Counted from the first letter of the stretch, positions 5,981 to 42,888 are shown. The stretch is 64,000 nucleotides of DNA from Candidatus Parcubacteria bacterium (GCA_026395595.1 JAPLYL010000005.1:76853-140852); one strand, 5' to 3'. The notes: generated from the letters alone by a model not told the origin. Made by a program: numbers and translations.

Positions 5981-5987
5981 TCAAAAC

Positions 5988-6026: not shown

Positions 6027-6029
6027 TTT

Positions 6030-6404
6030 TTATTCAACCGTTATGGTTCCTTTCATGCTCGGATGAATGGAACAAATATAATCAAAACTCCCCTCCTGGT
6101 TAAAAGTTGAGCTGTACGTAAATCCTGTTTTAATAACATCGCTTTTAAAGTCTGTTCCGGAAATCTGATGAGGAGCGGAGTCTTCGTTTGTCCAAATTAT
6201 AATGTCGCCTTTTTTCACTTTCATATCAGAGGGAACAAAAGCAAAATTCTTAATGGAGATTTGGCGAATCTGCGCCGTAATGACCGGCTTTTCGTATTTT
6301 ACGGGAGGAAGATTTTGTTCTGTCTTCTTTTGCTGGGTCAACGCAAAGATGGCCAATATGGCAACGACGACAACAATAACGACGAGAACGTATTTTATTT
6401 TCAT
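6030..6404 (-). CDS. cupredoxin (plastocyanin/amicyanin-like blue copper protein), membrane-anchored
   Basis: N-terminal TM or signal anchor. The C-terminal ligand pattern ...APHQ...CSIHPSMKG matches the type-1 copper His/Cys/His/Met motif. Confidence 0.75.
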   Translation of the reverse strand: MKIKYVLVVIVVVVAILAIFALTQQKKTEQNLPPVKYEKPVITAQIRQISIKNFAFVPSDMKVKKGDIIIWTNEDSAPHQISGTDFKSDVIKTGFTYSSTFNQEGSFDYICSIHPSMKGTITVE

Positions 6405-6413
6405 ACGATTATA

Positions 6414-6614
6414 TTAAAAATAGAGTAATAAACCTAAAATTAAATGAACAAAAATAATGCCGGTTAAAATCATGGCGTTCGTTTTATGCGCGCTGAAATA
6501 ATCCGGGTGTCCATGAACCAGTTTGTATCCCAGATAGAGCTGTAAAGAAAAGTCTATCAAAGCAATCAGCCCCAACCAAAACACCAGGGGTTTTCCCAAA
6601 ATAATAAAAAACAT
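6414..6614 (-). CDS. small two-helix membrane protein
   Basis: Hydrophobic 66-aa ORF immediately upstream of and co-oriented with the cupredoxin gene (10-nt gap). Confidence 0.4.
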   Translation of the reverse strand: MFFIILGKPLVFWLGLIALIDFSLQLYLGYKLVHGHPDYFSAHKTNAMILTGIIFVHLILGLLLYF

Positions 6615-6747
6615 AGTGCTTCTATTTTAACACTTTTTTATTTTTCAGGTAAGGGAAAACTCATCATAAGTCCTTGACTTTATATTGTTTTGATGTATAA
6701 TAAGCTTTGAATAATCAGTACTTTTTATACACAACAAGGATTTAACA

Positions 6748-7017
6748 ATGAAAGTGATAAAAGATAAAAAAGATGCTCTTGATGAACTTCTGGAGATGTC
6801 AAAAAGGTTTCGCGGATGCAACGACCCGCAAGTAATTTTTGCTTCGGCAGTGCTTTATACGCTCGCCGGAGCGCTTCAAAAAGGGACAACGGATGAATTG
6901 GCAAAAGTTCTTCTTGAGCACGTAACGCGTGACGGAGAAGTGCTTCGCAAAGCGACGTCCCTTGCCGGGAACATCCAGCTGGCCCCGGAAAGTAACGGAA
7001 GCAAACGACTAAATTAA
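6748..7017 (+). CDS. hypothetical protein (89 aa)
   Basis: AAGGA RBS. Strong hairpin terminator at 7026-7060 in the same orientation. The opposite-strand ORF 6725..7123 is rejected. Confidence 0.5.
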   Translation: MKVIKDKKDALDELLEMSKRFRGCNDPQVIFASAVLYTLAGALQKGTTDELAKVLLEHVTRDGEVLRKATSLAGNIQLAPESNGSKRLN

Positions 7018-7111
7018 AAAACCGCCATCGCTCCGAGCTGTCTCGGAGCGATTTTTTATTGATATTTCTCCACAGTTTATTCGTACCATTTAGTGTGATT
7101 GTATTGTATGA

Positions 7112-8503
7112 TTGAAGAAACAATCTCTCTCTTTTATGAAAATACGAACGCAGCTTATCGTTACTTATATCGTTATAGCGCTCCTTCCTGTTCTGCTTGT
7201 ATCATGGACTGCCTACTCTAAAGCACGCAGTGCTCTTGTCAAAGAACAGCAAAATTCTTTGGAATCAACTACCGAACTAAAAATTGATTCCATACAGAGT
7301 TATTTTTCTTTTTTTTCAAAAGAGATAACTATAACAAAAGAACGTTTTACGATACGACAGTACTTTCCTATTCTTGTCGGGTCGGAAAATAAAATAAACA
7401 CCTCGGAACAAAAAAGAGTGGCGGAAGTTATTGATATGGAAGCAAAAAGCATCCTTTCAACCATAAAAGAAATAAAGGATCTATTTTTAATAGATTCAAA
7501 CGGAAAGATTGTCTATTCTTCAAAAAAAGAAACGGAGCAAAAAAATATAAGAGTGGTATTCCCCGTCAGAGGATTAGACGCTTTTCTAAAAGGAAAAGAG
7601 GGGGTTTTTCTCTCAGATATCCTTTATGACAAAAATCTGAACGAACGAAATTTTCTGGAAAGCGCCCCGATATATGACCTTTCCGGAAATTTTGCGGGAG
7701 TGCTCATTTTTCAAATAGATGCAGAATCTCTCTTCTCTGTCGTTCAAGAAACAATCGGCATGGGAAATACGGGAGAAACGCTTATCGCAAGACAAGTTTC
7801 CGAAGATCCGCTTATTCCCAATAACGAAAAAACGTACGACCCGCAAGGAAAAATGATTATGTTTTTGAATCCTTTGCGTTTTGATCAGAACGCTTCTTTT
7901 AACCGATTCATCCGCATCGGAGACAAAACAGGTCTGCCGATACAGAACGCCATTCAAAAAAAAGATGGCGGCGGTATAAACATAGACTACCGTGGAAAAG
8001 AAGTTCTTTCCGTCTGGAAATATCTGCCGGAATACCATTGGAGTCTGGTAACGAAAATAGATATGTCGGAGGTCTTGTCTCCCGTTTATGAATGGCTCAA
8101 AACGGCTGTCATGGTATTCTTTGCCATAATTTTGTTTATTATTCTTTTTTCTATTCTCCTTGCACATATCCTTTTATCCCCCATCAAAGAGATTATGAGT
8201 GTGGTGAAAGAGTTTCGTGAAGGGAACAAAGCCATAAGACTGAGCAGAAAAATAATTTCTTCCAAAAACGAGATTGGAGAATTCGGACGAATTTTGGAAT
8301 CATATGCCGATGAGGTCCTCTGCTCGGAAGAAAACACGAAAAAACAAATAGAAGAAAAAACGCAAAAGCTGGCGAAACAAGAGGAGGAGATGAAAACAAA
8401 ACTTGAAAATGTTGAGCGTGCGAATAAACTCATGGTGGGAAGAGAACTAGAAATGGTAAAATTAAAAAAAGAGATTGCGGAATATAAAAATAGCAAACAA
8501 TAA
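7112..8503 (+). CDS. membrane sensor protein: extracytoplasmic Cache-like domain plus HAMP plus coiled coil, no kinase domain
   Basis: TTG start at 7112 (or ATG at 7136). TM1, approximately 270-aa periplasmic domain, TM2, HAMP-like segment (LAHILLSPIKEIMSVVKEFREGNKAIRL...EIGEFGRILESYADEV), Glu/Lys-rich coiled coil. No HisKA or HATPase in the ORF. Confidence 0.7.
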   Translation: MKKQSLSFMKIRTQLIVTYIVIALLPVLLVSWTAYSKARSALVKEQQNSLESTTELKIDSIQSYFSFFSKEITITKERFTIRQYFPILVGSENKINTSEQKRVAEVIDMEAKSILSTIKEIKDLFLIDSNGKIVYSSKKETEQKNIRVVFPVRGLDAFLKGKEGVFLSDILYDKNLNERNFLESAPIYDLSGNFAGVLIFQIDAESLFSVVQETIGMGNTGETLIARQVSEDPLIPNNEKTYDPQGKMIMFLNPLRFDQNASFNRFIRIGDKTGLPIQNAIQKKDGGGINIDYRGKEVLSVWKYLPEYHWSLVTKIDMSEVLSPVYEWLKTAVMVFFAIILFIILFSILLAHILLSPIKEIMSVVKEFREGNKAIRLSRKIISSKNEIGEFGRILESYADEVLCSEENTKKQIEEKTQKLAKQEEEMKTKLENVERANKLMVGRELEMVKLKKEIAEYKNSKQ

Positions 8504-8504
8504 A

Positions 8505-8942
8505 ATGAATGAACTTGAAAACATCGTACCAAAACTGATAGAACAGCATCGTCTTTTGCAAAAAGACCTTGGAATGGCCGCGGCAATGACAGAAATGGAA
8601 AAGCCTTCTTCTCAAGAAATAGAAAAATGGCTTCAGCAATTTACCGCTGACCTTACCGAGCACCTGCACTTGGAGAACGCTGTTTTTTATGTTGAACTCC
8701 TCAAAAAAATGAAAGAAGCGGGCGTTGATACGACAAACACGGGGATATTCATCGCCGATATGAAAAATATTGGGAACAAAGTGGAAACTTTTATGAAAAA
8801 ATACAAAAAAGCGGATACTATTGATGCTTCTCTGGCAGAATTTAAATCTGAATTCTTTCCTATTATAAACGCGCTGAACATCCGCATTGAGTCGGAAGAG
8901 TCAGGCGTGTATCTCTATTGGGATTTATATAATAAAGAATAA
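8505..8942 (+). CDS. hypothetical protein, possibly hemerythrin-like metal-binding
   Basis: ATG 1 nt after the upstream stop. HLHLENAVFYVELL H-x-H-x-E style motif. Weak assignment. Confidence 0.35.
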   Translation: MNELENIVPKLIEQHRLLQKDLGMAAAMTEMEKPSSQEIEKWLQQFTADLTEHLHLENAVFYVELLKKMKEAGVDTTNTGIFIADMKNIGNKVETFMKKYKKADTIDASLAEFKSEFFPIINALNIRIESEESGVYLYWDLYNKE

Positions 8943-8961
8943 ATAAAAAAACATTTATCGT

Positions 8962-10621
8962 ATGAAAATCAAGACAAAAATTTTACTTGCTTTTTCCTTT
9001 CTTCTGATTGTTGTTTTAGCAAGCGGCTATGTTTTTCTTGGAGAGATTCTTAAGGTTAAGGAGCTGATTTCAAAAAACGTTCCGCAAGATTTGCCGGTAT
9101 TTTTGGAAATGGAAAAAACGATAAACAACGGTCAAACAGCAGCCTTCTCGTTCATAATTATTGCTTGTTTTTTAATCATTTTCTTCGCCTTATTCTTTTT
9201 CTCTCTGTTCTCAAAATCCCTTAAAAGACTTCGCGATACCATAGAAAATGTTAAACACGGAAACTTAAGCGTTTGCTCCGTTCCTTTGAAAAATGACGAG
9301 ATAAGCGAGCTTTCAAAATCTTTCTGTGAAATGACTGATATCTTAAAAAACTCGCAAACAGAGGCGCAAAAAAAAGTTGAAGAACAAACGACGGAACTTT
9401 CTAAAAAAACTAAAGACCTTGATGACCAGAAAAACGCCATCTTGAATATCTTGGAAGATGTAGACAAAGAAAAGGAAAAAACAGAGGCCTTGGCAAAAGA
9501 TTTGAAAAAATTCCAACTGGCCGTAGAAAACGCGGCCGAAATGGTAGTCATTACCGACCCCGAAGGTATTTTAGTTTATGGAAACAAGGCCGTAAAAAGG
9601 ATTACCGGCTACGAGGTAAGCGATGCAATTGGAAAAAAAGCGGCTGCCTTCTGGAAAAGCCCCATGAAGAAAGAATACTATCAAGAAATGTGGCGCATTA
9701 TCAAAATCGAGAAAAAGACTTTCCACGGTCAATTGCAGAACAAAAGAAAGAACGGGGAGATATATGAAGCTGATATTTCTCTTTCACCAGTGCTTGACGA
9801 TAACGGAAACATTATTTTCTTCGTTGGCATTGAACGCGATATCACTAAAGAAAAGGAAGTAGACAGAGCAAAAACAGAATTCGTATCGCTTGCTTCGCAC
9901 CAGCTTCGTACCCCGCTTTCTTCTATCAATTGGTATACGGAAATGCTTCTCAGTGGCGAAGTCGGAGAATTAAATGACGGACAAAAAAATTATCTCAAAG
10001 AAGTGTATGCCAGCAGTCAGCGTATGGGAGACCTCGTCGGAACTCTTTTAAATGTATCACGTCTGGAACTTGGAACTTTTGATATAGACCCCTCAAAAGT
10101 AGACGTAAGCGCCATCTCAAAATCAGAATTAAACGAAATGAAACCGACGATTACAGAAAAAAAAGATCGTGATAAAAGAAACCTATGGAGAAAATGTCAC
10201 TGAATTCCAAGCGGATAAAAGATTACTAACCATAGTTCTTCAAAATCTTTTATCAAATGCCATAAAATACACCAACAACGAAGGAGAAGTGAGTATTGCC
10301 ATTCAGACGATTCCAGAAGGGTCTCTCCTTGACGGAAGAAAAATGACAGAAGAAAGTTTAGGGATAACCGTGGCCGATTCAGGAATCGGTGTTCCAAAAT
10401 CTCAACAGGACAAAATTTTTACCAAACTCTTCCGTGCCGACAATGCCGCTTCTTCCCGTACAGAAGGCACCGGTCTCGGATTATATATCGTTAAAGCCAT
10501 TGTTGAACAATCAGGAGGACAAGTGTGGTTCACTTCGGAAGAAAATATGGGAACAACCTTTTTCGTTTCCTTCCCTCGCACGGGAATGAAGAAAAAAGAA
10601 GGAACCAAATCTTTAGCCTAA
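8962..10621 (+). CDS. sensor histidine kinase (TM-HAMP-PAS-HisKA-HATPase_c), interrupted by a 1-nt frameshift in an A8 tract at 10157-10164
   Basis: HisKA H-box ASHQLRTPLSSINWY is in frame 1, ending at 10203. The HATPase_c region (NLLSNAIKYT...GTGLGLYIVK...) continues in frame 2 from about 10165. Alignment to the intact paralog 23492..25855 (EKKHIVIQE vs EKK-IVIKE) places the shift in the homopolymer. Confidence 0.75.
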
Positions 10622-10688
10622 CAGATTTAAATAGTAAAATAATAAAAATTGCCGGACAGTATTTGTCCGACAATTTTTGAGATTTTGA

Positions 10689-11060
10689 TTATGAAATATG
10701 GACGAGGGCGTTATTTACTTTTTCTACGAGTTCATTAATAGGATGCTGCGATTTTACCAAGTAATCAATAGCACCGAGTCTAATGGATTCTTTTATCTGT
10801 TCATCGCCATCAAGATTAGAAATCATAATGACTGGTATTTGTTTTACGTCGGGGTCGGACTTAAGCTCTTTAAGAATTACTAAACCTGTCTTTTTCGGAA
10901 GTATAATATCCAGTAAAATAATATCGGGCATGAATTTTTTAGCGGTTGGCAATACCGCGTCTCCACTCATAACAAATTCTACGGTAAATTTCTCCCGTTC
11001 AAATTTCTCACGAAACACCTTTACCAGGGATTCTTCGTCTTCAGCAATGAGTATTTTCAT
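10689..11060 (-). CDS. response regulator, receiver domain only (CheY-like)
   Basis: Acidic pocket (EDE), phospho-acceptor Asp (LLDIILP), conserved T and K. No output domain. Confidence 0.85.
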   Translation of the reverse strand: MKILIAEDEESLVKVFREKFEREKFTVEFVMSGDAVLPTAKKFMPDIILLDIILPKKTGLVILKELKSDPDVKQIPVIMISNLDGDEQIKESIRLGAIDYLVKSQHPINELVEKVNNALVHIS

Positions 11061-11093
11061 AGCGTTATCATTATAATTGTTATTTAATATGGT

Positions 11094-12548
11094 TTATCTC
11101 TGCGATAGTTCTCGGATATTGTCTATAATATATTTCTTCGTCTTACTCGCTTTTTCACTTATCTTTTTAGCGAGAAAACCTATTTCATTCAGACCTTTTG
11201 CGCTTACGTGATTTACTTTTGCAACATCAATTATTTTTTCAGCATCTTCAGAAATGATATTAAACGTATCCCCAACATCACGCTCCGCGACGACGATTCT
11301 CCTTTCAAGCTGATTTTCCCATCTCCTATAAGAATACCACCATCCGCCGAATATCGCTATCAAGACAAGAACCAGTATAACAAAAAATTGGGATTGTGTC
11401 ATGGTCAGAGTGCCGACAGAGAAAAAGGCGTTTTCTCTGATTTTTATCGTTATGTTGGTACTTGTTTTATTGCCTGCTTTGTCTTCCGCAATAACGGAAA
11501 CAATATGATTTCCCGAAGAAAGCGCGGATAAAGTGTACTTTGTAAGAATAGTGCTGGTCGCCTGATCTCCGTCAACTAAAATCCGATAAAAATCAATACC
11601 GGAAGGCTGGTCTTTTGTTTCAAAAGAAATCGTCGGGGTGACCACATACGTGGAATTCCCTTCGTGAGACACGACATCAAAAGCGAGGGGCGGCGCCGTA
11701 TCTATACCGATCTTGTAATCAGTAACCGGGCCCCACCCGACATCATTTTTAAACCGTACATGAAGATACCAAACACCATCAGACAAACTTGGGAATGTTT
11801 TATTATCAAAAAGACCTTCGGAATTTTTGAGATCAAAAACAGGTTGTTGATCAAGAGCTGTCGCAACCCCGGTAACATCAGAAGGAAGCGACCATTGAAC
11901 AATAAAAGGAGAAAGAGAATCATACCACTGATCAGAAGACGGATATAGTGGTATGTTCAGTGCCGGTTTTGCCGGTATTTTTCCTGTCGGAACAGCGATA
12001 CGTTTGATTATTTGAACAGGAGGAACTTTCGGTGCAGGAATAACTCGAGACGCTTCTTGTTTGGTTATACTAGTGATATTCAAACCTTTCATGGCAGAAA
12101 GGACGTTTGTCCCATTGCCGTCAGCGGCCGTAATGGCGCCGTTACTAAAAGAAATTTCTGCGGGACCGGAACCTACCACCTTAAAAGTAATGCGAAGCGC
12201 CTGAAGAGTTTTTCCCGTTAATCCGCTTGAAGAACCTCCGATGAACAAAACCTCCCCCGCTGAATTATCAACGGTCGGTTCCTGCAACCAAAAAGAAAAA
12301 ACGGAATTGGTTTTGTCTGTTTCTTTTTCTTGCAAAACGCCAACGGGAAAATTTATAGAGGCCTGTGCTGCGTTTATTCCCACGCCTTCACTGTCTATTT
12401 TTACATCAACACTGAATTCATCGCCTATCGCGAACTGAGTTTTATCCGTAATAAGGTTTAACGTTCCTGCATAGGCCGGTAGTGCAACAACAAAGAGAGA
12501 GATGATACCGGTTACGAAATATACTATGAAACTTTTTATATGGTGCAT
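11094..12548 (-). CDS. cohesin-domain type-I membrane protein (putative scaffold or anchor for dockerin proteins)
   Basis: Signal peptide MHHIKSFIVYFVTGIISLFVVALPAYA. Approximately 140-aa beta-sandwich segment with cohesin-like pattern (FSVDVKID...ASINFPVGVLQ...EVLFIGGSSSGLTGKTLQALRITFKVVGSGPAEISF). Second Ig-like extracellular domain. TM helix (FFVILVLVLIAIFGGWWYSY). About 70-aa cytoplasmic tail. Confidence 0.6.
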   Translation of the reverse strand: MHHIKSFIVYFVTGIISLFVVALPAYAGTLNLITDKTQFAIGDEFSVDVKIDSEGVGINAAQASINFPVGVLQEKETDKTNSVFSFWLQEPTVDNSAGEVLFIGGSSSGLTGKTLQALRITFKVVGSGPAEISFSNGAITAADGNGTNVLSAMKGLNITSITKQEASRVIPAPKVPPVQIIKRIAVPTGKIPAKPALNIPLYPSSDQWYDSLSPFIVQWSLPSDVTGVATALDQQPVFDLKNSEGLFDNKTFPSLSDGVWYLHVRFKNDVGWGPVTDYKIGIDTAPPLAFDVVSHEGNSTYVVTPTISFETKDQPSGIDFYRILVDGDQATSTILTKYTLSALSSGNHIVSVIAEDKAGNKTSTNITIKIRENAFFSVGTLTMTQSQFFVILVLVLIAIFGGWWYSYRRWENQLERRIVVAERDVGDTFNIISEDAEKIIDVAKVNHVSAKGLNEIGFLAKKISEKASKTKKYIIDNIRELSQR

Positions 12549-12676
12549 ATTTTTAAGATACTTGCTTCTATTTATTATATCTCCATTTTGCAAACGTATC
12601 AATAAAATAAAGGGGAAAACCGAGACGACGGAGAAAAAAGCAAAAAGAAACAAGGAAAAAGAAGACAGAAAGATAC

Positions 12677-12707
12677 AAACACTGCCGGATTATACTCGGC
12701 AGTGTTT
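12677..12707 (-). terminator. rho-independent terminator of the giant gene
   Basis: CAAACACTGCCG-loop-CGGCAGTGTTTG. A T-rich tract follows on the minus strand. Confidence 0.6.
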
Positions 12708-12725
12708 GTATTCTTTTCTCTCTTT

Positions 12726-18700: not shown

Positions 18701-21700
18701 TTCCTCCATCGTACTCTTTGATAGTAGCAAGCATTCCGGTAACGGTAAGCGCTTTTGCCGTAATAGCTCCCGTGACATCAATTGGCGCAGTGACCGTGTA
18801 ATTTGAAGAGTCAGTTCCGGTAAGAGTGACGGAAGAAACATTGACTGTCTTACCTGTTCCTACCGTTTTGGTTGCGAATGTTCCAGTGCGAGTATCTATG
18901 GAAACGACATCTGGATTGATGACTCCAACAAGAGAACCACCGGTAAGAGTTGCCGTGATACCGCCATCATATTCTTTAGCGGTCGCAGTCATTCCCGTAA
19001 CGGTCAAAGCTTTTGCCGTAATAGCTCCCGTGACATCAGTCGGCGCAGTGACCGTGTAATTTGAAGAGTCAGTTCCGGTAAGAGTGACGGAAGAAACATT
19101 TACCGTCTTACCCGTTCCAACCGTTTTTATGTCAAAGGTTCCGACGCGAGTGTTGATGGAAACGACATCAGGAGAAATTATACCGACGAGAGAACCGCCG
19201 GTCAGGGTCGCCGTCACTCCTCCGTCATATTCTTTAGTGGTAGCGAGCATTCCTGTAACCGTCAGCGCTTTTGCCGTAATCGTTCCAATAACATCGGTCG
19301 GATTGGTAACCGTGTAGTTCGTTGCATCTGCACCGATTAAAGTAACAGATGTAACGTTTACCGTTTTTCCGGTACCAGCCGTTTTTGTGGCGAAGGTTCC
19401 AACGCGAGTATTAATAGAAACAACGTCTGGAGAAATTATGCCGACGAGAGAACCGCCTGTGAGAGTCGCGGTCAATCCACCGTCATATTCTTTGGTGGTT
19501 GCTTGCATGCCGGTGACGGTCAACGCTTTCGCGGTGATAGTTCCGGTAACATCAGTAGGATTCGTAACGGTATAGTTTCCTGAAGCACTGCCGTTTAATG
19601 TAACAGAAGTTACGTCCACGGTTTTTCCTGTTCCGACAGTCTTAGTAGCAAATGTTCCGGTTCGTGTATTAATAGTAATAACATCTCCGGAAACAACACC
19701 GACAAGAGAACCGTCCGTAAGGGTTGCCGTTACTCCGCCGTCATATTCTTTAGTTGTCGCGAGCATTCCGGTAACAGTGAGCGCTTTTGCGGTCATAGTT
19801 TGCGCAACCGCGCTTGAAGTACTTCCTGAGAAAGTTGTATCGCCTCCGTATACCGCCGTAATAGAATGTGGGGAACCGGCAACAGAAAGCGTGCTCGTTG
19901 AGTAAGTCGCCACGCCAGCGCTCAATGTTCCCGTTCCGATAGTCGTCACTCCGTCTTTGAAGGTAACCGTTCCAGTTGCAGGGCCTCCGCTTGCGGGAGT
20001 GACGGTTGCGGTGAAAGTAACAGAAGTGCCATATGTCTGAGGAGTCAAAGAAGTACCAAGTGCTGTCATGGTCGTAACTTTATCAACGGAGACAACAGGA
20101 GAAGAAGCGATATTGGTTAAAGTTCCAGAATCAGAAATTTTTGTCTGTGTTGTAAAAGTGGAATTACCGGTAGTATCCGGTGCCGTAGCATTGTTGTAGG
20201 AAACGACCATGGTCTGCGGAGCGGTCAACCCTAAAATGCGAGTATTGATAACTCCGCTACCGGGAAAAGTCGGCACTCCGGGGCCGACAAGAAAATCGTC
20301 TACGTTTATAGTCGTTGCTCCGATGTTCGTAACATATTTAATACCGAAACTGTTTACTGAAGTGCGGGTCCCTGTAAGAGTTAATTTTTGGTACGTCCAC
20401 GTATTCGCGGAAAGCGCTCCGATATTAATGCTTCCGATCGGGCTGGAAACATCGCTCGCGTCATCATACACAAATTGCAAATCTCCCGCGTTAGCCGCGA
20501 CCGCTGAACGAATCCAAAAACCGACAGTCGTATAACCGGACCAGTTTTGAGTCGCGCCTAAAGTCTGATACCAGCTATCCCCGGCCGTAGCGCCGGCAGT
20601 CAAAACATTTTTCAGAGAACCGGTTCCTTCGTGAACGACGCTCGCATCCAAAGAAAGTGTCTGTAAAGCCGAAGTCGGTGCCGTCCAACCGGTTGTCGCA
20701 TCGCCATAATTAATAATAGAACCCATCGCGTCTATATCTATAGTAAGAGCGCCCTTGTCATTCACCTGTCGCAAACCATACGAACGAATAGAGCTCGCGC
20801 CGAGATTGGGAATGGAAAGCGTTACATACGTCCAAGTATTCGCGGACAGAGCGGGCAAACTGACCGTATCGGTAATAGAGAAAAGACTGGCGGAATTATC
20901 ATCTACCCAAGCAAAATCTCCGGCGTTCAAAGCCACGCTGGAACGAACCCAGAAGCTTACTTTATTTCCGGGAAGAATAGTAAGCGCTGTTGATGTGCGA
21001 TAGCATTCTCCGTTCGCTCCGGTTCCAGCGGTTCCCGCGTAAGTACAGCGAATGGAGTTCGTTCCCTCTTGTCCGCTTCCAACCGCAGAAATAGAAATGT
21101 TTGCATCCCCCGTCCAGTTCGTCGTTACGTCGGCAGCATCAAAAAGAATGGAGACCGAATCCAATTTTATGGTTGCGGCGCCAAGGTCGGTCGTATAACG
21201 CAATCCGTAAGAAAGTTGAGAGGTTCTCGCCACGCCTAAAGTGACAGAAGTATATTTCCATGTATTTGCCGTAAGCGCCGCAATAGCCAATGTATCCAAA
21301 GGAGATGCCAAACTGGCGCTATTATCGTCTTGCCAAGAAAGATCTCCGCTCGCCGTATTCACGCTGGATTTAATCCACATGCCGACACGCTGTCCATTTG
21401 CACCGTTAGCGGCAGTACCCCAACTCGTCGCTCCTCCGTAATTGAAGTACCATTGTTCATTCGCGGCAGCATTTGCGGTGATAGCATTTGAAAGAGAGCC
21501 TGTTCCCTCTTGTTTATCTCCCGTATCCGCAGAAAGAGTCATATGCTGATTCGCGGTCCAGCCGGAAATACTATCAAGCGTGTTCAAAACCGTGGCGACA
21601 ATTCCACTCGCGGAAGCAACCGTCGTGTAGCCTGCCGTGGCCGGCGTACTATTGGGAGCGCTCCAACCTGAAGGAACGGTGATGTTGAAACCTCCGCTAT

Positions 21701-21890
21701 CCATCGTTTCCGCGGCCGTCAGAGTGAAGCTCAAATTATTTCCAGTAGAGCTTACGGTTACATTGGTCGGAGAAACCGTATTGGTACCGGAACCGTCAGC
21801 AGCAAAGACATGAGATAGGGGAACAAAAAGAATTCCCGAGAAGGCGATAAACGAAACGATGATTCTTGCGAAAAAGTTCTTCCCTGTCAT
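12726..21890 (-). CDS. giant secreted surface protein (3054 aa): signal peptide, 4 CBM-like modules, 12 MBG/YDG-type repeats, IPT/TIG, Big-like Ig repeats, C-terminal dockerin
   Basis: Single uninterrupted ORF. Sec signal (VFA/ADG). N-terminal approximately 150-aa modules repeated 4 times (W..VDDNSASL). 12 repeats of about 86 aa carrying KEYDGG. IPT/TIG-like segment (NPVPIITNISP...VTNPAPGGG). Repeated Ig-like modules (FVIIPP...VTVQAQ). C-terminal DFNGDGTIGIQD...DLNGDGKVNIQD is a canonical two-segment dockerin Ca-binding repeat. Confidence 0.9.
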   Translation of the reverse strand: MTGKNFFARIIVSFIAFSGILFVPLSHVFAADGSGTNTVSPTNVTVSSTGNNLSFTLTAAETMDSGGFNITVPSGWSAPNSTPATAGYTTVASASGIVATVLNTLDSISGWTANQHMTLSADTGDKQEGTGSLSNAITANAAANEQWYFNYGGATSWGTAANGANGQRVGMWIKSSVNTASGDLSWQDDNSASLASPLDTLAIAALTANTWKYTSVTLGVARTSQLSYGLRYTTDLGAATIKLDSVSILFDAADVTTNWTGDANISISAVGSGQEGTNSIRCTYAGTAGTGANGECYRTSTALTILPGNKVSFWVRSSVALNAGDFAWVDDNSASLFSITDTVSLPALSANTWTYVTLSIPNLGASSIRSYGLRQVNDKGALTIDIDAMGSIINYGDATTGWTAPTSALQTLSLDASVVHEGTGSLKNVLTAGATAGDSWYQTLGATQNWSGYTTVGFWIRSAVAANAGDLQFVYDDASDVSSPIGSINIGALSANTWTYQKLTLTGTRTSVNSFGIKYVTNIGATTINVDDFLVGPGVPTFPGSGVINTRILGLTAPQTMVVSYNNATAPDTTGNSTFTTQTKISDSGTLTNIASSPVVSVDKVTTMTALGTSLTPQTYGTSVTFTATVTPASGGPATGTVTFKDGVTTIGTGTLSAGVATYSTSTLSVAGSPHSITAVYGGDTTFSGSTSSAVAQTMTAKALTVTGMLATTKEYDGGVTATLTDGSLVGVVSGDVITINTRTGTFATKTVGTGKTVDVTSVTLNGSASGNYTVTNPTDVTGTITAKALTVTGMQATTKEYDGGLTATLTGGSLVGIISPDVVSINTRVGTFATKTAGTGKTVNVTSVTLIGADATNYTVTNPTDVIGTITAKALTVTGMLATTKEYDGGVTATLTGGSLVGIISPDVVSINTRVGTFDIKTVGTGKTVNVSSVTLTGTDSSNYTVTAPTDVTGAITAKALTVTGMTATAKEYDGGITATLTGGSLVGVINPDVVSIDTRTGTFATKTVGTGKTVNVSSVTLTGTDSSNYTVTAPIDVTGAITAKALTVTGMLATIKEYDGGTTVTLTNGTLVGIINPDVVSINTRTGTFATKTVGAGKTVNVTSVTLTGGDSSNYTVTNPTDVTGDITAKALTVTGMLATTKEYDGGITATLTGGTLVGVINPDVVSINTRVGTFTTKTVGAGKAVNVSSVTLSGTDPSNYTVTAPTDVTGTITAKALTVTGMLATTKEYDGGITATLTGGSLVGVINPDVVSIDTRTGTFATKTVGTGKAVNVSSVTIAGTDSSNYTVTAPTDVMGTITVKALTVTGMTADSKEYDGGITATVTGGSLVGIISPDVVTLSSTSASFADKFVGNGKTVTVNSITLGGVDKDNYTVTLPTVGIANITPKTLTVTGMTAENKAYDSFTTATVTGGSLVGVISPDIVTLSSTSASFADKAVGNGKTVTVDSITLGGTDKDNYTVTLPTVGTANITAKALTVTGMTAESREYDRGTSATLVGGTLVGVIIPDDVSISSRVGSFADETVGTGKSITVTSVVLGGTDAGNYTVTNPIGITGDITAKALTVTGMLATTKEYDGGITVTLTGGSLVGIISPDTVSIASRSGSFSDKTVGTGKAVNVSSVALSGTDSENYIVTNPLDVVGNVTAKTITVTGVMADDKVYDGNDTAVVNTTSASLVGVILGDIVTINSSVAVGTFDSANVGLDKPVTISGLSLSGTDATNYILTQPTGITASIRNPVPIITNISPSSKDAGDSGFTLMVNGSGFLSNSVVKFNGSSRTTSFVTSAQLTAEILTSDVITATSSALITVTNPAPGGGTSNAQVFTVAHAATQFVIIPPTAGTVDSSVTVTVQAQKANGVIDTDYQDDVTLNTSGTTATGGGLVSITNGEGTLSLSDTVAETVHLTLTDSQSTLLSVTSAQDLVFAPGAVTDFSLNSPGNMNARTRLGFQITRKDQYSNAVLAGTQTAYLYSNSTSTDKKFYDDSLTDNVITSIDFTDGSALANFWYYDDMPGTYTLTASDHTPTADLDVGINDATRDVTVIPVAVKFVILTASSTSVDSPLTITVQAQKENGDVDASFQEDVTLNADGSVTGDGLVNIVNGVGTKNLSNTVAESIHLTLTDSEGAGLNVDSSATVQWLGGATTQFSLTEPTTLSAGSRVGYTISRKDQHGNSTSQDEITAYLYSSSVSPNKKFYDAETAGTPITSITLLSGQQTANFWYYDEAPGTVTITASDGTPTANGAAGISDAVKVLSVTPGPVSSFTLNNAGDMTAKTRLGYTVTRKDQFGNLVTSGNTTAYLYTTAGALGVDNRQFYDSATLGNPISNVSIGDGSSLAHFWYYEEVAGLYTVTASDSISGPDALGVTDGTASVNVSPAPIVATKFVIIPPSSGTVDSPITITIQAQDDMGSLDTTATSSVMLLTSGAATGAGLVTLTDGVGTIQISDHNAETVHLTLSDVQSTGLNVSSTADAIFSTGEAKQLFIDNPGDTAAGARLGFTVTRKDQFGNLITTGVTNVTLDSSSAGVKRFYDAVSGGSVITSVNILEGQSIARFWYYDELAGSATVTVAGTAPGMTGSNRTFAVAPSSISKFTIDNPGNMTAGTRLEYTLTRKDTFDNLVTSGIVSAYLYSSAATTSSKFYDVATGGFLTDLVAFADGSATTNFWYYEEAPGTWVITASDGTPIANGTTGIQDAADSVTVTLAIITATHFTIQPVSNGTINLPTTVTIRAEDVNGNVDANYNHNVTLVTSGSATGGGVVTMVNGVGTMTIRDTVAETITLSLIDSQSTGLGVSSTQTLIFNAVFVPPTIVNIAGIASLPSVSGVRFTGKAFPGAVLNVVAIGGTDSLQAKKGVATSNGNFVLSFSGLTGGARSYGIVGTDKNNNTTQVKIFDANQANALLQLDVNGILLSPTIGLARGAVTKGDVLGITGAGAPGYKIEIQIDNQPTVITATVDSKGVYKALVPTFDLGFGSHMVRTRQVSPAGLKSDYSPQEVFSVVNIFTPNMDFNGDGTIGIQDYSIFVSRWQSANATLKAKDDLNGDGKVNIQDLSIFVKTLKK
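16880..19870. repeat. approximately 258-bp coding tandem repeats (about 12 copies) inside the giant gene
   Basis: Periodic DNA and protein repeat (ITAKALTVTGM..KEYDGG..). The plus-strand shadow ORFs recur every 258 bp (18067, 18325, 18568, 18826, 19084). Confidence 0.85.
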
Positions 21891-21945
21891 AAAAATAAGT
21901 TATTGCTCAATAAAAATGTAATGTTTGTTTTTATATGATATTTTT

Positions 21946-22332
21946 CTAGCACTTGCCTTCCAGACACTGGTTAACTTTTTCCACAACATCCGAAAGTTTC
22001 CAGTCTGTTTTTACCATATAAGCGACAGGAGAAAGCGCATCTATCTCTTTTCTCCTCCCATCGTCATCAGAAGAAAGATTCGTGAGAAGAATTACTGGCA
22101 CTTGTTTTCCGTAACCGCCGTCCTCCCGTAATTTCTTAAGCATCATTATCCCGTCCATATTCGGCATAATAATATCCAGCAAAATAATCTCCGGATGCAA
22201 CCTCTGCGCTTCCGCTAAACCTCGTATTCCGTCAATGGCAGTAAAAACTTCAAAGCCTTCTCTTTGAAATTTTTCCTCCATGGCTTTTCGGGCGGACGAT
22301 TCGTCCTCAACGATGAGTATTTTTTTTGCCAT
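21946..22332 (-). CDS. response regulator, receiver domain only
   Basis: LIVEDE...ILLDIIMP...K motif set. 128 aa with no output domain. Immediately upstream of the giant gene on the same strand. Confidence 0.85.
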   Translation of the reverse strand: MAKKILIVEDESSARKAMEEKFQREGFEVFTAIDGIRGLAEAQRLHPEIILLDIIMPNMDGIMMLKKLREDGGYGKQVPVILLTNLSSDDDGRRKEIDALSPVAYMVKTDWKLSDVVEKVNQCLEGKC

Positions 22333-22507
22333 ACATCTATTTATGTTTTTATCGTTATTTATAGACTAGATTGTTTAATTGTATCATGTCTCCCCTGCAA
22401 AAAAGCGAAAAATACTTGTGGAAAACTCAAGCCGTGACAAGAAAGCATTTTATCGCAAAAAACTAAAAAGTTGTACACAGGCAAATAAACAAAAAAGGTC
22501 ATTCATT

Positions 22508-22516
22508 TGATATAAT
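22508..22516 (+). promoter_or_regulatory. extended -10 (TGaTATAAT) 6 nt upstream of ATG, probable leaderless transcript
   Basis: TGATATAAT at 22508-22516. ATG at 22523. No RBS possible. Confidence 0.35.
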
Positions 22517-22522
22517 AGTCGT

Positions 22523-23488
22523 ATGTTCAAAAACTTAAAAATCAAGACGAAGATTATCGTCGGTTTTCTTGCAATAAACATTCCGCTTCTTGTTATCGGA
22601 TTTTTTGCCGTCCAAAAGATCTACCAAACCCCAGAACAAATAGACGGCACGGTGCAAAAAAGCATGGACGATCTTTCAAAAGCAACTCGTCTGAGCACTG
22701 TTTCCCAATTGATACGCTATTATGACGAATTCTTTACGCAGTCAATGAGAGACTACGCTTACACGCAAGACAGAAAATGGAGAGACCGCTATGTTTCAGC
22801 TACAACAACAGGAGACGCGCTGGTCGCGGAGGCCGTTGATTCAGGCGACGCAAAAGACAAAGAGATCTTTGCGAGAGTCAACGATGCAAACATGTCAATG
22901 ATAACCATGGAAGAAGATGCTATGCATCTTGTTGACAACAAACGCGCATCCGAAGCGATCAAAATCTTGGAAAGTCCCGAGTATGCCAAACAGAAAGAAA
23001 TATACAAAAACGGTTTGGATGAGTACGCAAAGCTTCATGATGAAAAATACGAAGTAGCCAAGTATGCCTCTGCTGTTGCTCTTCGTAATGCCGCCGTCGT
23101 AAGCAAAAATACCGAAAAAGCAAATATAACCTTTCTGATTGTCACCTTCATCTTTTGTTTTCTTGGTGGCCTTATCATGGATATTTTCTTCGCGTTTTTT
23201 GTCACCAAACCGCTGAAAGAATTGGAAAAAACGGTCAAAACCATCGCCTCGGGAGACGAAAGCGCCAGAAGTCTTATCTGGTCAAAAGACGAAATCGGAG
23301 AAATGGCGCAAGCGCTCAACCAAATGGCTGATAATCTCCAAAAATCAAAAGCGAACGTGGAAGAAAAAGTCGCAGAACGAACGTCCGAATTGGAAAAACT
23401 AAACGCCTTTATGTCTAATCGCGAAATAAAAATGGCTGAATTGAAAAAAGAAATAGAAGATCTCAAAAAGAAACAAACGAATGTCTAA
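22523..23488 (+). CDS. membrane sensor protein: periplasmic domain plus HAMP plus coiled coil, no kinase domain
   Basis: TM1 (IIVGFLAINIPLLVIGFFAV), approximately 150-aa periplasmic region, TM2, HAMP (PLKELEKTVKTIASGDESARS...EIGEMAQALNQMADNL), coiled coil. Stops 3 nt before the kinase gene. Confidence 0.7.
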   Translation: MFKNLKIKTKIIVGFLAINIPLLVIGFFAVQKIYQTPEQIDGTVQKSMDDLSKATRLSTVSQLIRYYDEFFTQSMRDYAYTQDRKWRDRYVSATTTGDALVAEAVDSGDAKDKEIFARVNDANMSMITMEEDAMHLVDNKRASEAIKILESPEYAKQKEIYKNGLDEYAKLHDEKYEVAKYASAVALRNAAVVSKNTEKANITFLIVTFIFCFLGGLIMDIFFAFFVTKPLKELEKTVKTIASGDESARSLIWSKDEIGEMAQALNQMADNLQKSKANVEEKVAERTSELEKLNAFMSNREIKMAELKKEIEDLKKKQTNV

Positions 23489-23491
23489 AAC

Positions 23492-25855
23492 ATGAAAAAA
23501 TTTCTCAAGATAGGAACAAGGATCACTATTACCTTCACGAGTCTTTTTGTGGTACTGGTACTTGCCGGAGGTTTCTTTCTCCAGAGAGAGGGAGCAAAAA
23601 GAAGTCTTGACCTGACCTACGAAAATTTGAAGATCATCAACGAATCAAAAAAACAAAACATACAATCTCTTCTGGAGAACGAAAAAGAAATGATCGCGGT
23701 TTTAGCGGTAAGTCCCACCATTCAAGATCTTTTACTGTCTCCGGAGGGGGTATCAGAGAAACAAAAAGCCATTCAAAAACTCCAGCTTGCCATAGAACAA
23801 GCGCCGGAAATCCGAGAATTAATGATTCTGGATAAAAACGGAAAAATCATTTCCACTTCAAATAAGGAGGAAAAGGATTTTGATAAGTCCGAGAAAAAAT
23901 TCTTTCTCCACGCTAAAAACGAAACGCATATTGAAGATTTCTACTTTTCAAAAACATTCGGTCAAAATTTATATTCAATTTCGTCTCCCTCCAAAAATAT
24001 CAATACTGAGGAATTTTTGGGGGTAGTGGTCGCTCAAATATACCCCAAAAAACTCTACGATATTCTCAATACCAATACCGACAAAAAAACGGAAGAAAAT
24101 TTTCTTATCAATCGTGACCTTTATTTTGTGTCGGGTTCTCGTTTTTTAGGAAACGATATAGTCTTGAAAAAAAAGAATGAGAAACCAAACATAAAAGATT
24201 GTTTTATAGACAAAACAGCGTTTTCATCAGTAAAAATCAAAAATGGGATTGATTACCGCGATGTCCGTATAATAGGAGCATACTCATATATTCCGGAGGG
24301 AGACTGGTGTCTTGCGATAGAAACTAATCAATCGGAAATTCTTGCCCAGTCCAATCAAATGGCAATCATTTTTTTGGTTGCCGGATTACTCTCTTCTTTT
24401 CTTTTTGTTCTTATCGGTTATTTGATCTCAAGGAGAATCACTAAACCGCTTGAAAAATTACGCGAAGGGGTAGAAGTGATAGAAAAAGGAGATCTGGACT
24501 TTAAGGTGGGAACGACCAACCCCGATGAAATCGGCGCCCTTTCTCGCGCTTTTGATAAAATGACTTCCTCTCTTAAAAAAACAAAAGAAGAAATTGATAA
24601 GAAAGTAAAAGAACAGACGTATGAGATAACCAGAAAGGCCGAGCAATTGGAGACACAGCAAAAAGCCACCCTCAACATTTTAAGCGACATAGAAAAAGAA
24701 AAAGAAAAAGCCGAGATGTTCGCAAAAGATCTGGAAAAATTCAAACTTGCCGTGGACGGAGCTTCCGACGGGGTTGTCATTACTGACCTTGAAGGCATCA
24801 TTCTCTATGTAAATCAAGGAGCGGAAAAAATTACAGGTTTTCCGAAGGAAGAGATTGTGGGACAAAAAGCCGGCTGTAAAAAAAATTGGGGCGGTTTGCA
24901 AGATGCTCCGTTTTACGAAAATCTTTGGAATATCATAAAAACGCAAAAAAAAGTATACCTTGGGGGCATGAAAAACCAAAGAAAAAACGGGGAAAAATAT
25001 GATGCCATACTCCACATCTCGCCAATTTTAGGCAAAGATAAAGAAGTAAAATTCTTTGTCGGGATTGAGCGCGACATTTCAAAAGAAAAAATGATTGATC
25101 GTTCAAAAACAGAATTCGTATCGCTCGCATCGCATCAACTCCGCACTCCTCTTTCTTTTGTAAATTGGTATTCAGAGATGCTTCTTGGAGGAGAAGTAGG
25201 TGATTTGAATGAAAAACAAAAAAAATACTTGGAAGAAATATACGCGGGTAATCAGAGAATGATAGATTTGGTAAATTCCCTTCTGAATGTCTCGCGTTTA
25301 GACCTTGGCACTTTCATCATAGAACCAATACAAATAAATATACAGGAAATGACAAAAAGCCTTCTTAAAGAATTAAGGCCTCAATCCGAAAAGAAACATA
25401 TTGTCATTCAGGAGGACTACGATTCCATCCCTCCAACCTTCCTCGCCGACCCAAAATTACTCCGTATGGTATTCCAAAACCTGCTCACTAATGCGATAAA
25501 ATATAATCAAGATTCGGGGACCGTCATGTTGAATGTCCAAAAAGTTGATAAAAAAATTATTTTTGCCGGACAAGAAATGAAAGAAGAAAATCTTGTCATA
25601 TCAGTATCCGATAGCGGTATAGGGATTCCTGACGGACAAAAAGACAAAATTTTCACTAAACTCTTCCGAACAGATAACGCCAAAGTGTCGGAATCCGAAG
25701 GAAACGGCCTCGGACTCTACATCATCAAATCAATTATTGACCAGTCAGGAGGACAAATATGGTTTGATTCACAGGAAAACAGAGGGACCACTTTCTATGT
25801 TTCTTTTCCTTTGTCCGGAATGAGAAAGAAAGAAGGAACCAAAAAATTGGACTAA
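23492..25855 (+). CDS. sensor histidine kinase (Cache-like periplasmic domain, HAMP, PAS, HisKA, HATPase_c)
   Basis: H-box ASHQLRTPLSFVNWY. N, G1 and G2 boxes (NLLTNAIKYN, DSGIGIP, GNGLGLYIIK). PAS segment (VVITDLEGIILYVNQGAEKITG). Confidence 0.9.
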   Translation: MKKFLKIGTRITITFTSLFVVLVLAGGFFLQREGAKRSLDLTYENLKIINESKKQNIQSLLENEKEMIAVLAVSPTIQDLLLSPEGVSEKQKAIQKLQLAIEQAPEIRELMILDKNGKIISTSNKEEKDFDKSEKKFFLHAKNETHIEDFYFSKTFGQNLYSISSPSKNINTEEFLGVVVAQIYPKKLYDILNTNTDKKTEENFLINRDLYFVSGSRFLGNDIVLKKKNEKPNIKDCFIDKTAFSSVKIKNGIDYRDVRIIGAYSYIPEGDWCLAIETNQSEILAQSNQMAIIFLVAGLLSSFLFVLIGYLISRRITKPLEKLREGVEVIEKGDLDFKVGTTNPDEIGALSRAFDKMTSSLKKTKEEIDKKVKEQTYEITRKAEQLETQQKATLNILSDIEKEKEKAEMFAKDLEKFKLAVDGASDGVVITDLEGIILYVNQGAEKITGFPKEEIVGQKAGCKKNWGGLQDAPFYENLWNIIKTQKKVYLGGMKNQRKNGEKYDAILHISPILGKDKEVKFFVGIERDISKEKMIDRSKTEFVSLASHQLRTPLSFVNWYSEMLLGGEVGDLNEKQKKYLEEIYAGNQRMIDLVNSLLNVSRLDLGTFIIEPIQINIQEMTKSLLKELRPQSEKKHIVIQEDYDSIPPTFLADPKLLRMVFQNLLTNAIKYNQDSGTVMLNVQKVDKKIIFAGQEMKEENLVISVSDSGIGIPDGQKDKIFTKLFRTDNAKVSESEGNGLGLYIIKSIIDQSGGQIWFDSQENRGTTFYVSFPLSGMRKKEGTKKLD

Positions 25856-25904
25856 ACCCAATATAAACATGTATAATGTTCGTATATAATTATTTTAAAA
25901 AATC

Positions 25905-26312
25905 ATGGAAAACAAAAAAACCATTCTTGTCGTGGAGATTGTAGAAGACGAAGCTTCTATTACGAACGTTCTTACTGACAAGCTGCACAACGAAGGTTTT
26001 TCTGTAATCAAAGCAAATAACGGAAAGGAAGGAATAGATGTAGCAAAAGAAAAACACCCCGATCTTATCTTGCTTGATATCAAAATGCCGGTTATGAACG
26101 GAATAGAAATGCTAAAGGTGCTCCGCAATGACGAATGGGGTCAAACCGTTCCGGTTATTGTGCTCTCAAACTTAAGCGATACCGAAACCATTGCGGAAGC
26201 GATAGACAAAAATACTTTTGAGTATTTTGTCAAAGCGGATACCAAGCTCCAAGAAGTAATAGAAAAAATAAAACAGAAACTCTGTATCCCTCCAAAATCT
26301 CAACAATCCTAA
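25905..26312 (+). CDS. response regulator, receiver domain only
   Basis: ILLDIKMP phospho-acceptor context. 135 aa with no output domain. Confidence 0.8.
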   Translation: MENKKTILVVEIVEDEASITNVLTDKLHNEGFSVIKANNGKEGIDVAKEKHPDLILLDIKMPVMNGIEMLKVLRNDEWGQTVPVIVLSNLSDTETIAEAIDKNTFEYFVKADTKLQEVIEKIKQKLCIPPKSQQS

Positions 26313-26317
26313 AGAAA

Positions 26318-26358
26318 ATCCCGTTCCGATAATACCGGAACGGGATTGTTTTATTTAA
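26318..26358. terminator. bidirectional terminator
   Basis: AAAATCCCGTTCCG-ATAATA-CCGGAACGGGATT plus GTTTTATTT, between convergent genes. Confidence 0.7.
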
Positions 26359-42886: not shown

Positions 42887-42888
42887 GT

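Follow-up and report, generated by a model that had tools for sequence, protein, structure and literature searches.

Kinase-less HAMP receptors with a conserved C-terminal helix lie beside histidine kinases with a matching linker motif around surface-protein genes of a Candidatus Parcubacteria bacterium

In a stretch of 64,000 nucleotides from a Candidatus Parcubacteria bacterium (GCA_026395595.1, JAPLYL010000005.1:76853-140852; referred to here as the window, with positions counted from its first letter), the region 7112-26312 contains two sets of signalling genes placed around genes for surface proteins. On the plus strand, a first unit comprises a sensor without a kinase (S1), a hemerythrin-like protein (Hr) and a histidine kinase (K1). 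The minus strand carries a receiver-only regulator (RR2), a giant secreted protein, a membrane-anchored protein (Coh-like) and another receiver-only regulator (RR1), in that order and with short spacers, and a second plus-strand unit comprises a second kinase-less sensor (S2), a kinase (K2) and a third receiver-only regulator (RR3). Both sensors end in the same basic helix, named here the S-motif, and the kinases encoded beside such sensors carry an acidic helix, the K-motif. It is in our judgement roughly an even call that the region holds two copies of a conserved co-sensor and kinase module around a surface-adhesin operon, in which the terminal helix of the S protein would dock on the linker of the kinase.

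The first-pass annotation of this DNA had described three two-component modules with three kinases. Its gene order and domain calls were largely borne out, apart from the kinase count, the unspecified "small protein", an intact K1 and the word "cohesin". Only two kinases, K1 and K2, are encoded in 7112-26312, and the middle "module" is a miscount, being two receiver genes that flank the surface-protein genes.

The two sensors and their terminal motifs are the following (TM, transmembrane segment; aa, amino acids).

7136-8503, plus strand: S1, kinase-less sensor; TM-dCache_1-TM-HAMP-signalling helix/coiled coil, ending in the S-motif
8420-8488, plus strand: S-motif of S1, ANKLMVGRELEMVKLKKEIAEYK; aa 437-459 of 463, 4 residues before the stop
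22523-23488, plus strand: S2, kinase-less sensor; TM-four-helix bundle (of the 'IRYYDE...' type)-TM-HAMP-signalling helix/coiled coil, ending in the S-motif
23396-23473, plus strand: S-motif of S2, KLNAFMSNREIKMAELKKEIEDLKKK; aa 292-317 of 321, 4 residues before the stop

Analysis of TM windows and Pfam matches identified S1 and S2 as HAMP transmembrane receptors, in which two TM segments flank an extracytoplasmic sensor domain and are followed by HAMP. The open reading frame (ORF) of S1 opens with a TTG at 7112, its likely start is the ATG at 7136, and the product is identical to an NCBI protein (P0057). Pfam recognised dCache_1 in S1 (E 8.3e-15) and HAMP only weakly, below the cut-off, though S1 orthologues carry PF00672; in S2 it recognised HAMP (5.5e-15) and, weakly, 4HB_MCP_1. 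No match to HisKA or HATPase_c was obtained with either protein (Pfam, E<=0.01), and none to MCPsignal (PF00015), the proteins ending about 45-65 aa past HAMP. The homologues have the same build: those of S1, at 35-40% identity, are 456-458 aa long with dCache and HAMP only, and those of S2, at 34-91% identity, are 299-373 aa long with HAMP as sole Pfam domain, all of them without a kinase. The ratio of nonsynonymous to synonymous substitution rates (dN/dS), estimated with saturated synonymous sites, was 0.036 for S2 (against a 91% identical orthologue) and 0.133 for S1, S2 being more tightly constrained than K2 (0.110); by these estimates S2 is under strong purifying selection. The claim that both stand-alone sensors lack HisKA and HATPase was thus upheld, and the kinase-less state is conserved. 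Frame correction cannot restore a kinase in either of them, since orthologues at 34-91% identity share the position of the stop.

Two candidate identities were discarded. That S1 and S2 are truncated kinases or frameshift artefacts was ruled out by the orthologue lengths, the common stop and the dN/dS values, and that they are chemoreceptors was ruled out by the missing MCPsignal domain; no CheA-type kinase, CheW or chemoreceptor genes were found in the window region or among the called genes of the related loci examined. An AlphaFold2 (AF2) model of S2 was all-helical and had a mean confidence (pLDDT) of 86.9, and in it the second HAMP helix (AS2), the signalling helix and the S-motif form one unbroken helix, residues 257-319. 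Its top matches in the PDB (Foldseek) were the sensor-TM-HAMP fragment of NarQ (5jgp, probability 1.0) and the ligand-binding domains of four-helix-bundle chemoreceptors.

The S1 and S2 families share the S-motif in every full-length orthologue. Its consensus is ELE(K/R)xNK(L/F)MVGRELKM(I/V)ELKKEIxxLK, followed by a few residues, and R, E, M and K are invariant within it in 88 sequences. A search with a hidden Markov model (HMM) of the motif among 1.84 billion representative proteins gave 10,406 matches at E<=1e-3, which include weak ones and were not individually inspected, and 327 at E<=1e-10; in 141 of the 150 best, the match ended within 16 residues of the C-terminus. Lengths of S-motif proteins peak at about 310-320 aa and at 420-435 aa. 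In a set of 5.8 billion proteins no match of the profile was longer than 98 aa and many matches were contig fragments, and the census of domain architectures was therefore taken from the representative search and from the loci described below. The motif occurs unchanged behind unrelated heads (PAS-only, dCache, four-helix bundle, and a protein with a CHASE4 gene-call match), in bacteria and archaea. There is no model for it in Pfam or NCBIfam, and the literature searched, with the motif strings, HAMP proteins lacking an output domain and two-component systems of the Candidate Phyla Radiation (CPR) as subjects, held no description of such a class. We define S-motif co-sensors as proteins that carry ...NKxMVGRELKMxELKKEI within about 16 aa of the stop and have no enzymatic domain; S1 and S2 both have these properties, and we regard S proteins, from their sequences, as a real, conserved and unnamed protein class.

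Two kinds of unusual S-motif proteins were also seen. A minority has a conserved helical tail of about 78 aa past the motif (W..KFQEA.D.EE...YL...H...F..LI.YE), as at L011 6651-7817, L012 6700-7818, L013 8004-9179 and L015 6869-7720. There are besides tiny ORFs of 41-77 aa with only coiled coil and S-motif (P0126, P0136, P0145, P0194 and P0199), on contigs of 12-52 kb. Their hosts are CPR and, in the case of P0154, ANME-2 archaea, and they may act alone as docking helices or be fragments produced by gene calling.

To survey the neighbourhood of S genes, a set with one genome per species was scanned with the S2 family, which gave 80 loci (numbered L) from many CPR lineages, DPANN archaea, Thaumarchaeota, Omnitrophota, Planctomycetota and Desulfobacterales. 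In them ORFs were called and searched with local HMMs for the kinase core, the receiver, the S-motif and the hemerythrin-like protein. We found 84 S-motif ORFs in 56 of the loci, effectively none of them with a kinase core; a kinase of L084 that apparently had both motifs proved to be a K-motif kinase with a weak match in the HAMP region and no true S-motif. The other 24 loci have the S2-type sensor domain on ordinary kinases, so that the same heads are used with or without a kinase. A kinase lay downstream on the same strand within 1.5 kb of 48 S genes, directly adjacent in 26 cases and often with overlapping stop and start, and upstream of only 2. Chains of two or three S-motif genes often precede one kinase. 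Locus L006 (2959-9646) is the clearest example of such a receptor array: a dCache_3-only protein of 528 aa, a 410-aa S-motif protein with the CHASE4 gene-call match and an S2-like HAMP-only protein of 373 aa are followed by a kinase and a receiver.

The kinases beside S genes are marked by the K-motif, of consensus Q(Q/K)KA(I/L)LNILEDVEEEK (QKAILNILEDVEEEK), which is located between the HAMP/signalling helix and PAS, or right before the dimerisation and histidine phosphotransfer (DHp) domain. It was present in 47 of 50 partner kinases and in 2 of 35 non-partner kinases (Fisher 9e-18), the latter being mostly from other phyla. In L052, one of the three exceptions, the K-motif is found in the ORF that immediately precedes the short kinase, and this kinase is probably split by a frameshift; in L072 a contig-truncated ORF downstream of the S gene has the K-motif as well. 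K-motif kinases are spread over several kinase-core clades, from CPR, DPANN, Desulfobacterales and Omnitrophota. The two motifs are of opposite net charge, +2.2 +/- 1.3 for the S-motif and -2.9 +/- 1.2 for the K-motif. One protein (P0059) has an S1-type sensor (47% identity) fused to a K1-type HAMP-linker-PAS part (60% identity), which shows sensor exchange at exactly the junction between sensor and HAMP-linker, and we take the sensor heads to be interchangeable between S proteins and kinases.

The kinases of the window and the features within them are listed below.

8962-10621, plus strand: K1, histidine kinase; TM-short loop-TM-HAMP-K-motif-PAS-HisKA-HATPase, with the frame broken once
9421-9480, plus strand: K-motif of K1, DDQKNAILNILEDVDKEKEK, an acidic linker helix between HAMP and PAS
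10157-10164, plus strand: A8 homopolymer, site of the 1-nt indel that shifts the K1 frame
23492-25855, plus strand: K2, histidine kinase; TM-dCache_1-TM-HAMP-K-motif-PAS-HisKA-HATPase, full
24653-24709, plus strand: K-motif of K2, TQQKATLNILSDIEKEKEK, as located by the K-motif HMM
41897-44826, plus strand: NMT1-type binding protein and kinase K4, with no S-motif partner and no K-motif

Of these three kinases, K1 and K2 have both an S partner and the K-motif, and K4 has neither. Each S gene of the window is followed on the same strand by a K-motif kinase, and the spacers within these units are of 1-19 nt (1 nt from the S1 stop to Hr, 19 nt from Hr to K1 and 3 nt from S2 to K2). The first-pass statement that each sensor lies directly upstream of a full TM-HAMP-PAS kinase is accurate for S2 and K2; K1 is reached only past Hr and its frame is broken. 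K2 has the H-box, HisKA and HATPase_c in one polypeptide, whereas in K1 Pfam placed HisKA (ORF 8962-10203) and HATPase (ORF 10169-10621) in two frames. In locus L009, from a sister genome (GCA_026395575.1), the K1 orthologue is intact, has 692 aa, is 81-92% identical and reads ...PTITEKKIVIKETYG... across the break (tblastn). The part of K1 past the break is still 92% identical in aa, with a dN/dS of 0.060, and the indel is therefore recent or a sequencing or assembly error; we read it as an assembly error or as a recent or phase-variable lesion. K1 also does without a periplasmic domain of about 140 aa that the L009 orthologue has kept and that is of the S2 type, the orthologue being 29% identical to S2 over 297 aa. 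In L009 itself, the S1 orthologue is split into 138 + 339 aa (5816-7175), and an IS200-like Y1 transposase gene (9831-10517) lies between the K1 and RR1 orthologues, so that in this lineage the S1 module seems to be easily damaged.

K4 (42889-44826; HAMP-PAS-HisKA-HATPase) follows by 2 nt the gene of a TM-anchored NMT1/THI5-type substrate-binding protein and has no adjoining receiver gene; it is with this protein an ordinary binding-protein co-sensor pair, and provides a useful internal contrast. In their kinase cores K1 and K2 are 60% identical and K4 is 48-50% identical to these. The kinases had been taken for a lineage-specific expansion. They belong instead to an old family, since orthologues of both modules occur in distant CPR lineages. 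The C-terminal stretch noted in support of that expansion is present, but it is family-wide rather than specific to the window: an extension beyond HATPase (...GTTFYVSFP..GM(K/R)KKEGTK.L) is common to CPR partner kinases of the window, L024, L027 and L009.

Between S1 and K1 lies the gene that had been annotated only as a small protein.

8505-8942, plus strand: Hr, hemerythrin-like four-helix protein, the middle gene of the S1-Hr-kinase triad

It is indeed there, and Pfam identified it as Hemerythrin (PF01814; E 9.5e-8, 33 bits with a cut-off of 25.3). The Hr family was found in 11 loci, with an S-motif sensor directly upstream in 10, a kinase directly downstream in 9 and both in 8. Only two histidines are conserved (QHR and HLxLE), together with an acidic RIESEE patch, and there is no conserved histidine in the second half; on comparison of the conserved residues the full set of di-iron ligands (H, HxxxE, H, HxxxxD) is not present, so the metal site is reduced and di-iron binding uncertain. 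In four further loci, some without a nearby kinase, S genes are followed by other members of the hemerythrin family, and for 15 of 94 S genes the next gene downstream belongs to this family. In L061, L062, L068, L085 and L089, where S genes have no kinase within 8 kb, units were seen that consist of a periplasmic binding protein or FIST gene, the S gene and a hemerythrin or an ORF of about 140 aa, a hint that S and hemerythrin together may form a core unit able to work with a kinase encoded elsewhere. Upstream of S genes, substrate-binding and FIST proteins are often encoded.

The regulators and the surface-protein genes between the two plus-strand units are arranged as follows.

10689-11060, minus strand: RR1, receiver-only, 123 aa, last gene of the minus-strand surface unit; sole Pfam match Response_reg, 4.6e-21; dN/dS 0.024
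11094-12548, minus strand: Coh-like membrane-anchored protein; signal/TM segment, N-terminal beta domain, Big_13 Ig-like domain, C-terminal TM
12726-21890, minus strand: giant secreted protein, 3054 aa; signal peptide, at least 12 YDG domains, C-terminal type I dockerin
21946-22332, minus strand: RR2, receiver-only, 128 aa, 55 nt upstream of the giant gene on the same strand; dN/dS 0.064
25905-26312, plus strand: RR3, receiver-only, 135 aa, directly downstream of K2; dN/dS 0.042

The prediction of three single-domain receivers without DNA-binding output was confirmed: the proteins have 123-135 aa, Response_reg is the only Pfam match of each, and there is no output domain. In comparison with CheY, one acidic-pocket Asp (D12), the phospho-acceptor Asp (D57) and the Lys (K109) are invariant, and Ser or Thr occupies the position of T87. 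Receiver-only genes were present in 38 of the 56 S-motif loci, up to four in a row, and only 3 receivers of 200 aa or more were found across all 80 loci. Receiver-only regulators are the rule in S-motif loci, so protein-protein output is a reasonable inference; the phosphate sinks that the first-pass annotation offered as an alternative are a conjecture.

In the giant protein, Pfam recognised YDG (4e-194) in 12 stretches and Dockerin_1 at nt 12729-12887 (E 5.3e-5; 23.8 bits with a cut-off of 22.9). This dockerin has the duplicated loop expected of such domains, with two DxNGDG calcium loops, DFNGDGTIGIQD...DLNGDGKVNIQD. The Coh-like protein had been called a cohesin, which could not be substantiated by Pfam, by sequence and profile searches of the PDB or by modelling. 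Big_13 was its only significant Pfam match and the N-terminal domain had none even at E<=10; the profile found two R. flavefaciens cohesins in the PDB, weakly (E 0.2), and a single-sequence AF2 model was unusable (pLDDT 43.6). Its gene is paired with that of a dockerin protein in at least seven loci, the window, L007, L043, L048, L066, L081 and L083.

The suggested link of the modules to surface display recurs in other genomes. In 17 of the 56 S-motif loci the module has type IV pilus genes (PilC-like, pilins, PilM) next to it, and in 7 it has dockerin/Coh-like pairs or YDG giants; surface-structure genes occur in 24 of the 56 in all, compared with 1 of the 24 control loci without an S-motif (pilus 1, dockerin 0), the controls being confounded by taxonomy. 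The modules are also conserved together with the giant gene in a related genome: the collinear L007, whose S1 orthologue is 39% identical, has on one strand a giant YDG-dockerin gene, a Coh-like gene, a gene for a 207-aa protein, S1, Hr, a kinase and four receivers.

The mechanism that we propose would work as follows. The S protein would be a dimeric transmembrane receptor (dCache or four-helix bundle, then HAMP) without enzymatic output, and its ligand state would pass through HAMP into the continuous basic C-terminal helix that is the S-motif. This helix would dock on the acidic K-motif helix (QKAILNILEDVEEEK) of the kinase encoded just downstream and tune its activity, so that the kinase would combine the ligand state of the co-sensor with the input from its own sensor; Hr would contribute a further, cytoplasmic signal in the S1 module. 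Phosphate would then go to receiver-only regulators acting by protein-protein contact, for which the most plausible targets would be the surface-structure machinery, here the giant YDG-dockerin protein and its membrane partner and elsewhere type IV pili. The physical docking of the two motifs, the direction and sign of control and the receiver targets are what we infer from motif pairing, gene order and linkage. Heteromeric sensor-kinase complexes had been suggested before; gene order, spacing and motif pairing do tie the sensors to the adjacent kinases, but a literal heterodimer falls outside that support, and S and the adjacent K carry different sensor domains.

A broader proposal, which we put forward tentatively and as possible rather than probable, is that the S-motif would be a stand-alone basic output helix of about 25 residues that plugs any sensor head into a K-motif kinase. 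If so, one kinase would read an array of separately encoded, exchangeable receptors, with heads such as dCache, four-helix bundle, the CHASE4-match head, PAS-only and binding-protein-coupled ones. The arrangement would be widespread in CPR and DPANN, extending to Desulfobacterota, Omnitrophota and Planctomycetota, and with it small-genome symbionts would drive receiver-only outputs that control pili and adhesins.

Several observations weigh against the docking module. No kinase is found within 8 kb in 15 of the 56 S-motif loci, and several of these kinase-less loci have the composition binding protein or FIST, S, hemerythrin-like protein or small ORF, so that the S-motif may have other or additional partners. 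The S-motif is nearly identical in S1 and S2, so the specificity of the pairs cannot come from the motif alone. The co-occurrence of the motifs is partly confounded by phylogeny and by recruitment, since all loci come from a search seeded with S2; the linkage to surface genes is present in under half of the loci and its background rate is not rigorous. In the window, moreover, K1 is frameshifted and its sensor domain is missing in the assembly, and the S1 module may be not fully functional here.

The kinase-less loci would be explained if S proteins were independent transducers whose terminal helix recruits Hr, a receiver, or pilus or secretion machinery, with kinase adjacency reflecting only a shared sensory regulon. 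The recurrent orphan units of binding protein or FIST, S and hemerythrin or an ORF of about 145 aa fit such transducers, as do the 15 of 94 S genes with a hemerythrin-family gene immediately downstream and the tiny ORFs of coiled coil and S-motif on long contigs. We nevertheless consider them unlikely, because they leave unexplained why the K-motif is in 47 of 50 neighbouring kinases and 2 of 35 others and why S genes precede the kinase 48 times and follow it twice, and because S2-type modules have no hemerythrin gene. It is also conceivable, though rather improbable, that S and K have only ancestry in common. S genes would then arise repeatedly by tandem duplication and truncation of K-motif kinases and yield decoy or dominant-negative receptors, which titrate ligand or join kinase clusters by TM/HAMP contacts, the terminal helix being a stabilising coiled-coil cap. 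S and K do follow the same TM-sensor-TM-HAMP-signalling-helix plan until the point of divergence and sensor heads have been swapped between them, and the phylum bias of the non-partner kinases would suit this origin too. Yet the S-motif is the same on unrelated heads of bacteria and archaea, with four invariant residues, and it differs from the K-motif in sequence and charge, and so is no decayed version of that motif; in most cases neighbouring S and K proteins differ in their sensor domains, which speaks against simple tandem duplication, and constraint is tighter on S2 than on K2.

Decay or an assembly artefact, with S1 and S2 as broken kinases in a non-functional island, would account for the split of K1 by a homopolymer indel, the loss of its periplasmic domain and the split of the L009 S1 orthologue. 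For S1 and S2 this is essentially excluded and we give it very little credit as a whole, since their orthologues at 34-91% identity are uniform in length with the same stop, their dN/dS values are low (0.036 for S2 and 0.133 for S1), and no kinase-like frame follows their stops, the next genes, Hr and K2, having their own starts; K1, too, is conserved past the break (92% aa identity, dN/dS 0.060).

Inspection of the remaining sequence gave two terminator-like hairpins.

10644-10678, no strand: two-way terminator-like hairpin between the convergent K1 and RR1
26317-26347: terminator-like hairpin 3' of RR3

Just upstream of S1, at 7027-7052, is a perfectly palindromic hairpin of 11 bp that is flanked by T-runs on either side and looks like a two-way terminator insulating the S1 operon; a minus-strand ORF that overlaps it (6725-7123) has no family match and is probably spurious. 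The 177-nt spacer between the stop of the giant gene and the start of the Coh-like gene contains a hairpin with a 17-bp stem (12672-12712), which could be an attenuator or an RNA-processing site setting the ratio of the giant to the Coh-like product. A promoter scan gave no excess over shuffled sequence. Near the S1-Hr-kinase triad a small cupredoxin/plastocyanin-like gene was seen in three genomes (window 6030-6404, minus strand; L007 14259-14681; L009 4532-4912), one of which, L007, shows an S1 identity of merely 39%. At 56101-57129 (minus strand), adjoining leuS, a protein of 342 aa has the unusual pairing of sigma-70 region 4 with HARE-HTH. The window is bacterial and encodes bacterial-type leucyl- and threonyl-tRNA synthetases, MurC, MurF and a penicillin-binding protein, and the closest species-level genome label in the scan was Candidatus Nomurabacteria.

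If docking holds, the S-motif and K-motif pair would be a new and widespread signalling interface. Separately encoded receptors feeding one kinase would explain how few kinases read many inputs, and thousands of proteins annotated merely as 'HAMP domain-containing' or 'cache domain-containing' would gain a function. CPR and DPANN organisms have tiny genomes and depend on cell contact, and the sensing and regulation of attachment in them is almost unexplored; a link of receiver-only regulators to pili and to a dockerin-anchored giant adhesin would be a concrete hypothesis. For attempts to rewire two-component systems, the pair also provides a compact peptide-helix interface that can be tested.

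Among known systems, the S2 model resembles the sensor-TM-HAMP fragment of NarQ, of the NarQ/NarX type, and the four-helix-bundle domains of chemoreceptors; unlike NarQ, which continues into DHp and HATPase, and chemoreceptors, which continue into MCPsignal, S2 stops about 45 residues after HAMP. In the RetS-GacS-LadS system, a membrane sensor modulates another sensor kinase by direct contact and not by phosphorylating a regulator. RetS and LadS keep kinase-like DHp and catalytic (CA) domains and act through DHp heterodimerisation, whereas S proteins have no such domains. A hemerythrin bundle is tied to signalling in the chemoreceptor DcrH and in the Bhr-diguanylate cyclase, presumably for O2, redox or iron input; Hr differs from these in being a separate protein of about 145 aa encoded between co-sensor and kinase. 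As in cellulosomes of the cohesin-dockerin type, a type I dockerin is located on a giant protein and a membrane-anchored partner is encoded by the next gene, but there are no carbohydrate-active enzymes, the cargo is an adhesin-like protein of YDG repeats, and the partner is only a putative cohesin.

In archaeal two-component systems stand-alone receivers dominate, and about 75% of the regulators of Thaumarchaeota are receiver-only, according to passages of the survey by Galperin et al. 2018 (PMC5847659). Since this dominance is documented in those passages for archaea, it is on its own not unusual. The archaeal systems share with the present loci the receiver-only majority and the inferred protein-protein output, and S-motif sensors and K-motif kinases occur in DPANN archaea too, although the window is bacterial (CPR). 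The same passages (PMC5847659) treat HisKA-only 'incomplete kinases' and new output domains and do not mention kinase-less HAMP sensors with an S-motif.

In function, the closest parallel is accessory-protein control; a kinase-less receptor with an output helix and a matching kinase motif was not found described in the literature searched. In accessory-protein or "three-component" control a non-kinase protein encoded beside a kinase likewise supplies or modulates its input. Cases are YycH/YycI with WalK and LiaF with LiaS, and among binding proteins TorT with TorS and LuxP with LuxQ. Control of the histidine kinase QseE by QseG is a further case (PMC12691602, PMC6075780). Unlike these accessory proteins, S is a complete receptor (sensor-TM-HAMP-signalling helix) built like the input half of a kinase; it ends in a dedicated conserved cytoplasmic helix for which the kinase has a matching conserved linker motif, and one kinase can be preceded by a chain of several such co-sensors.

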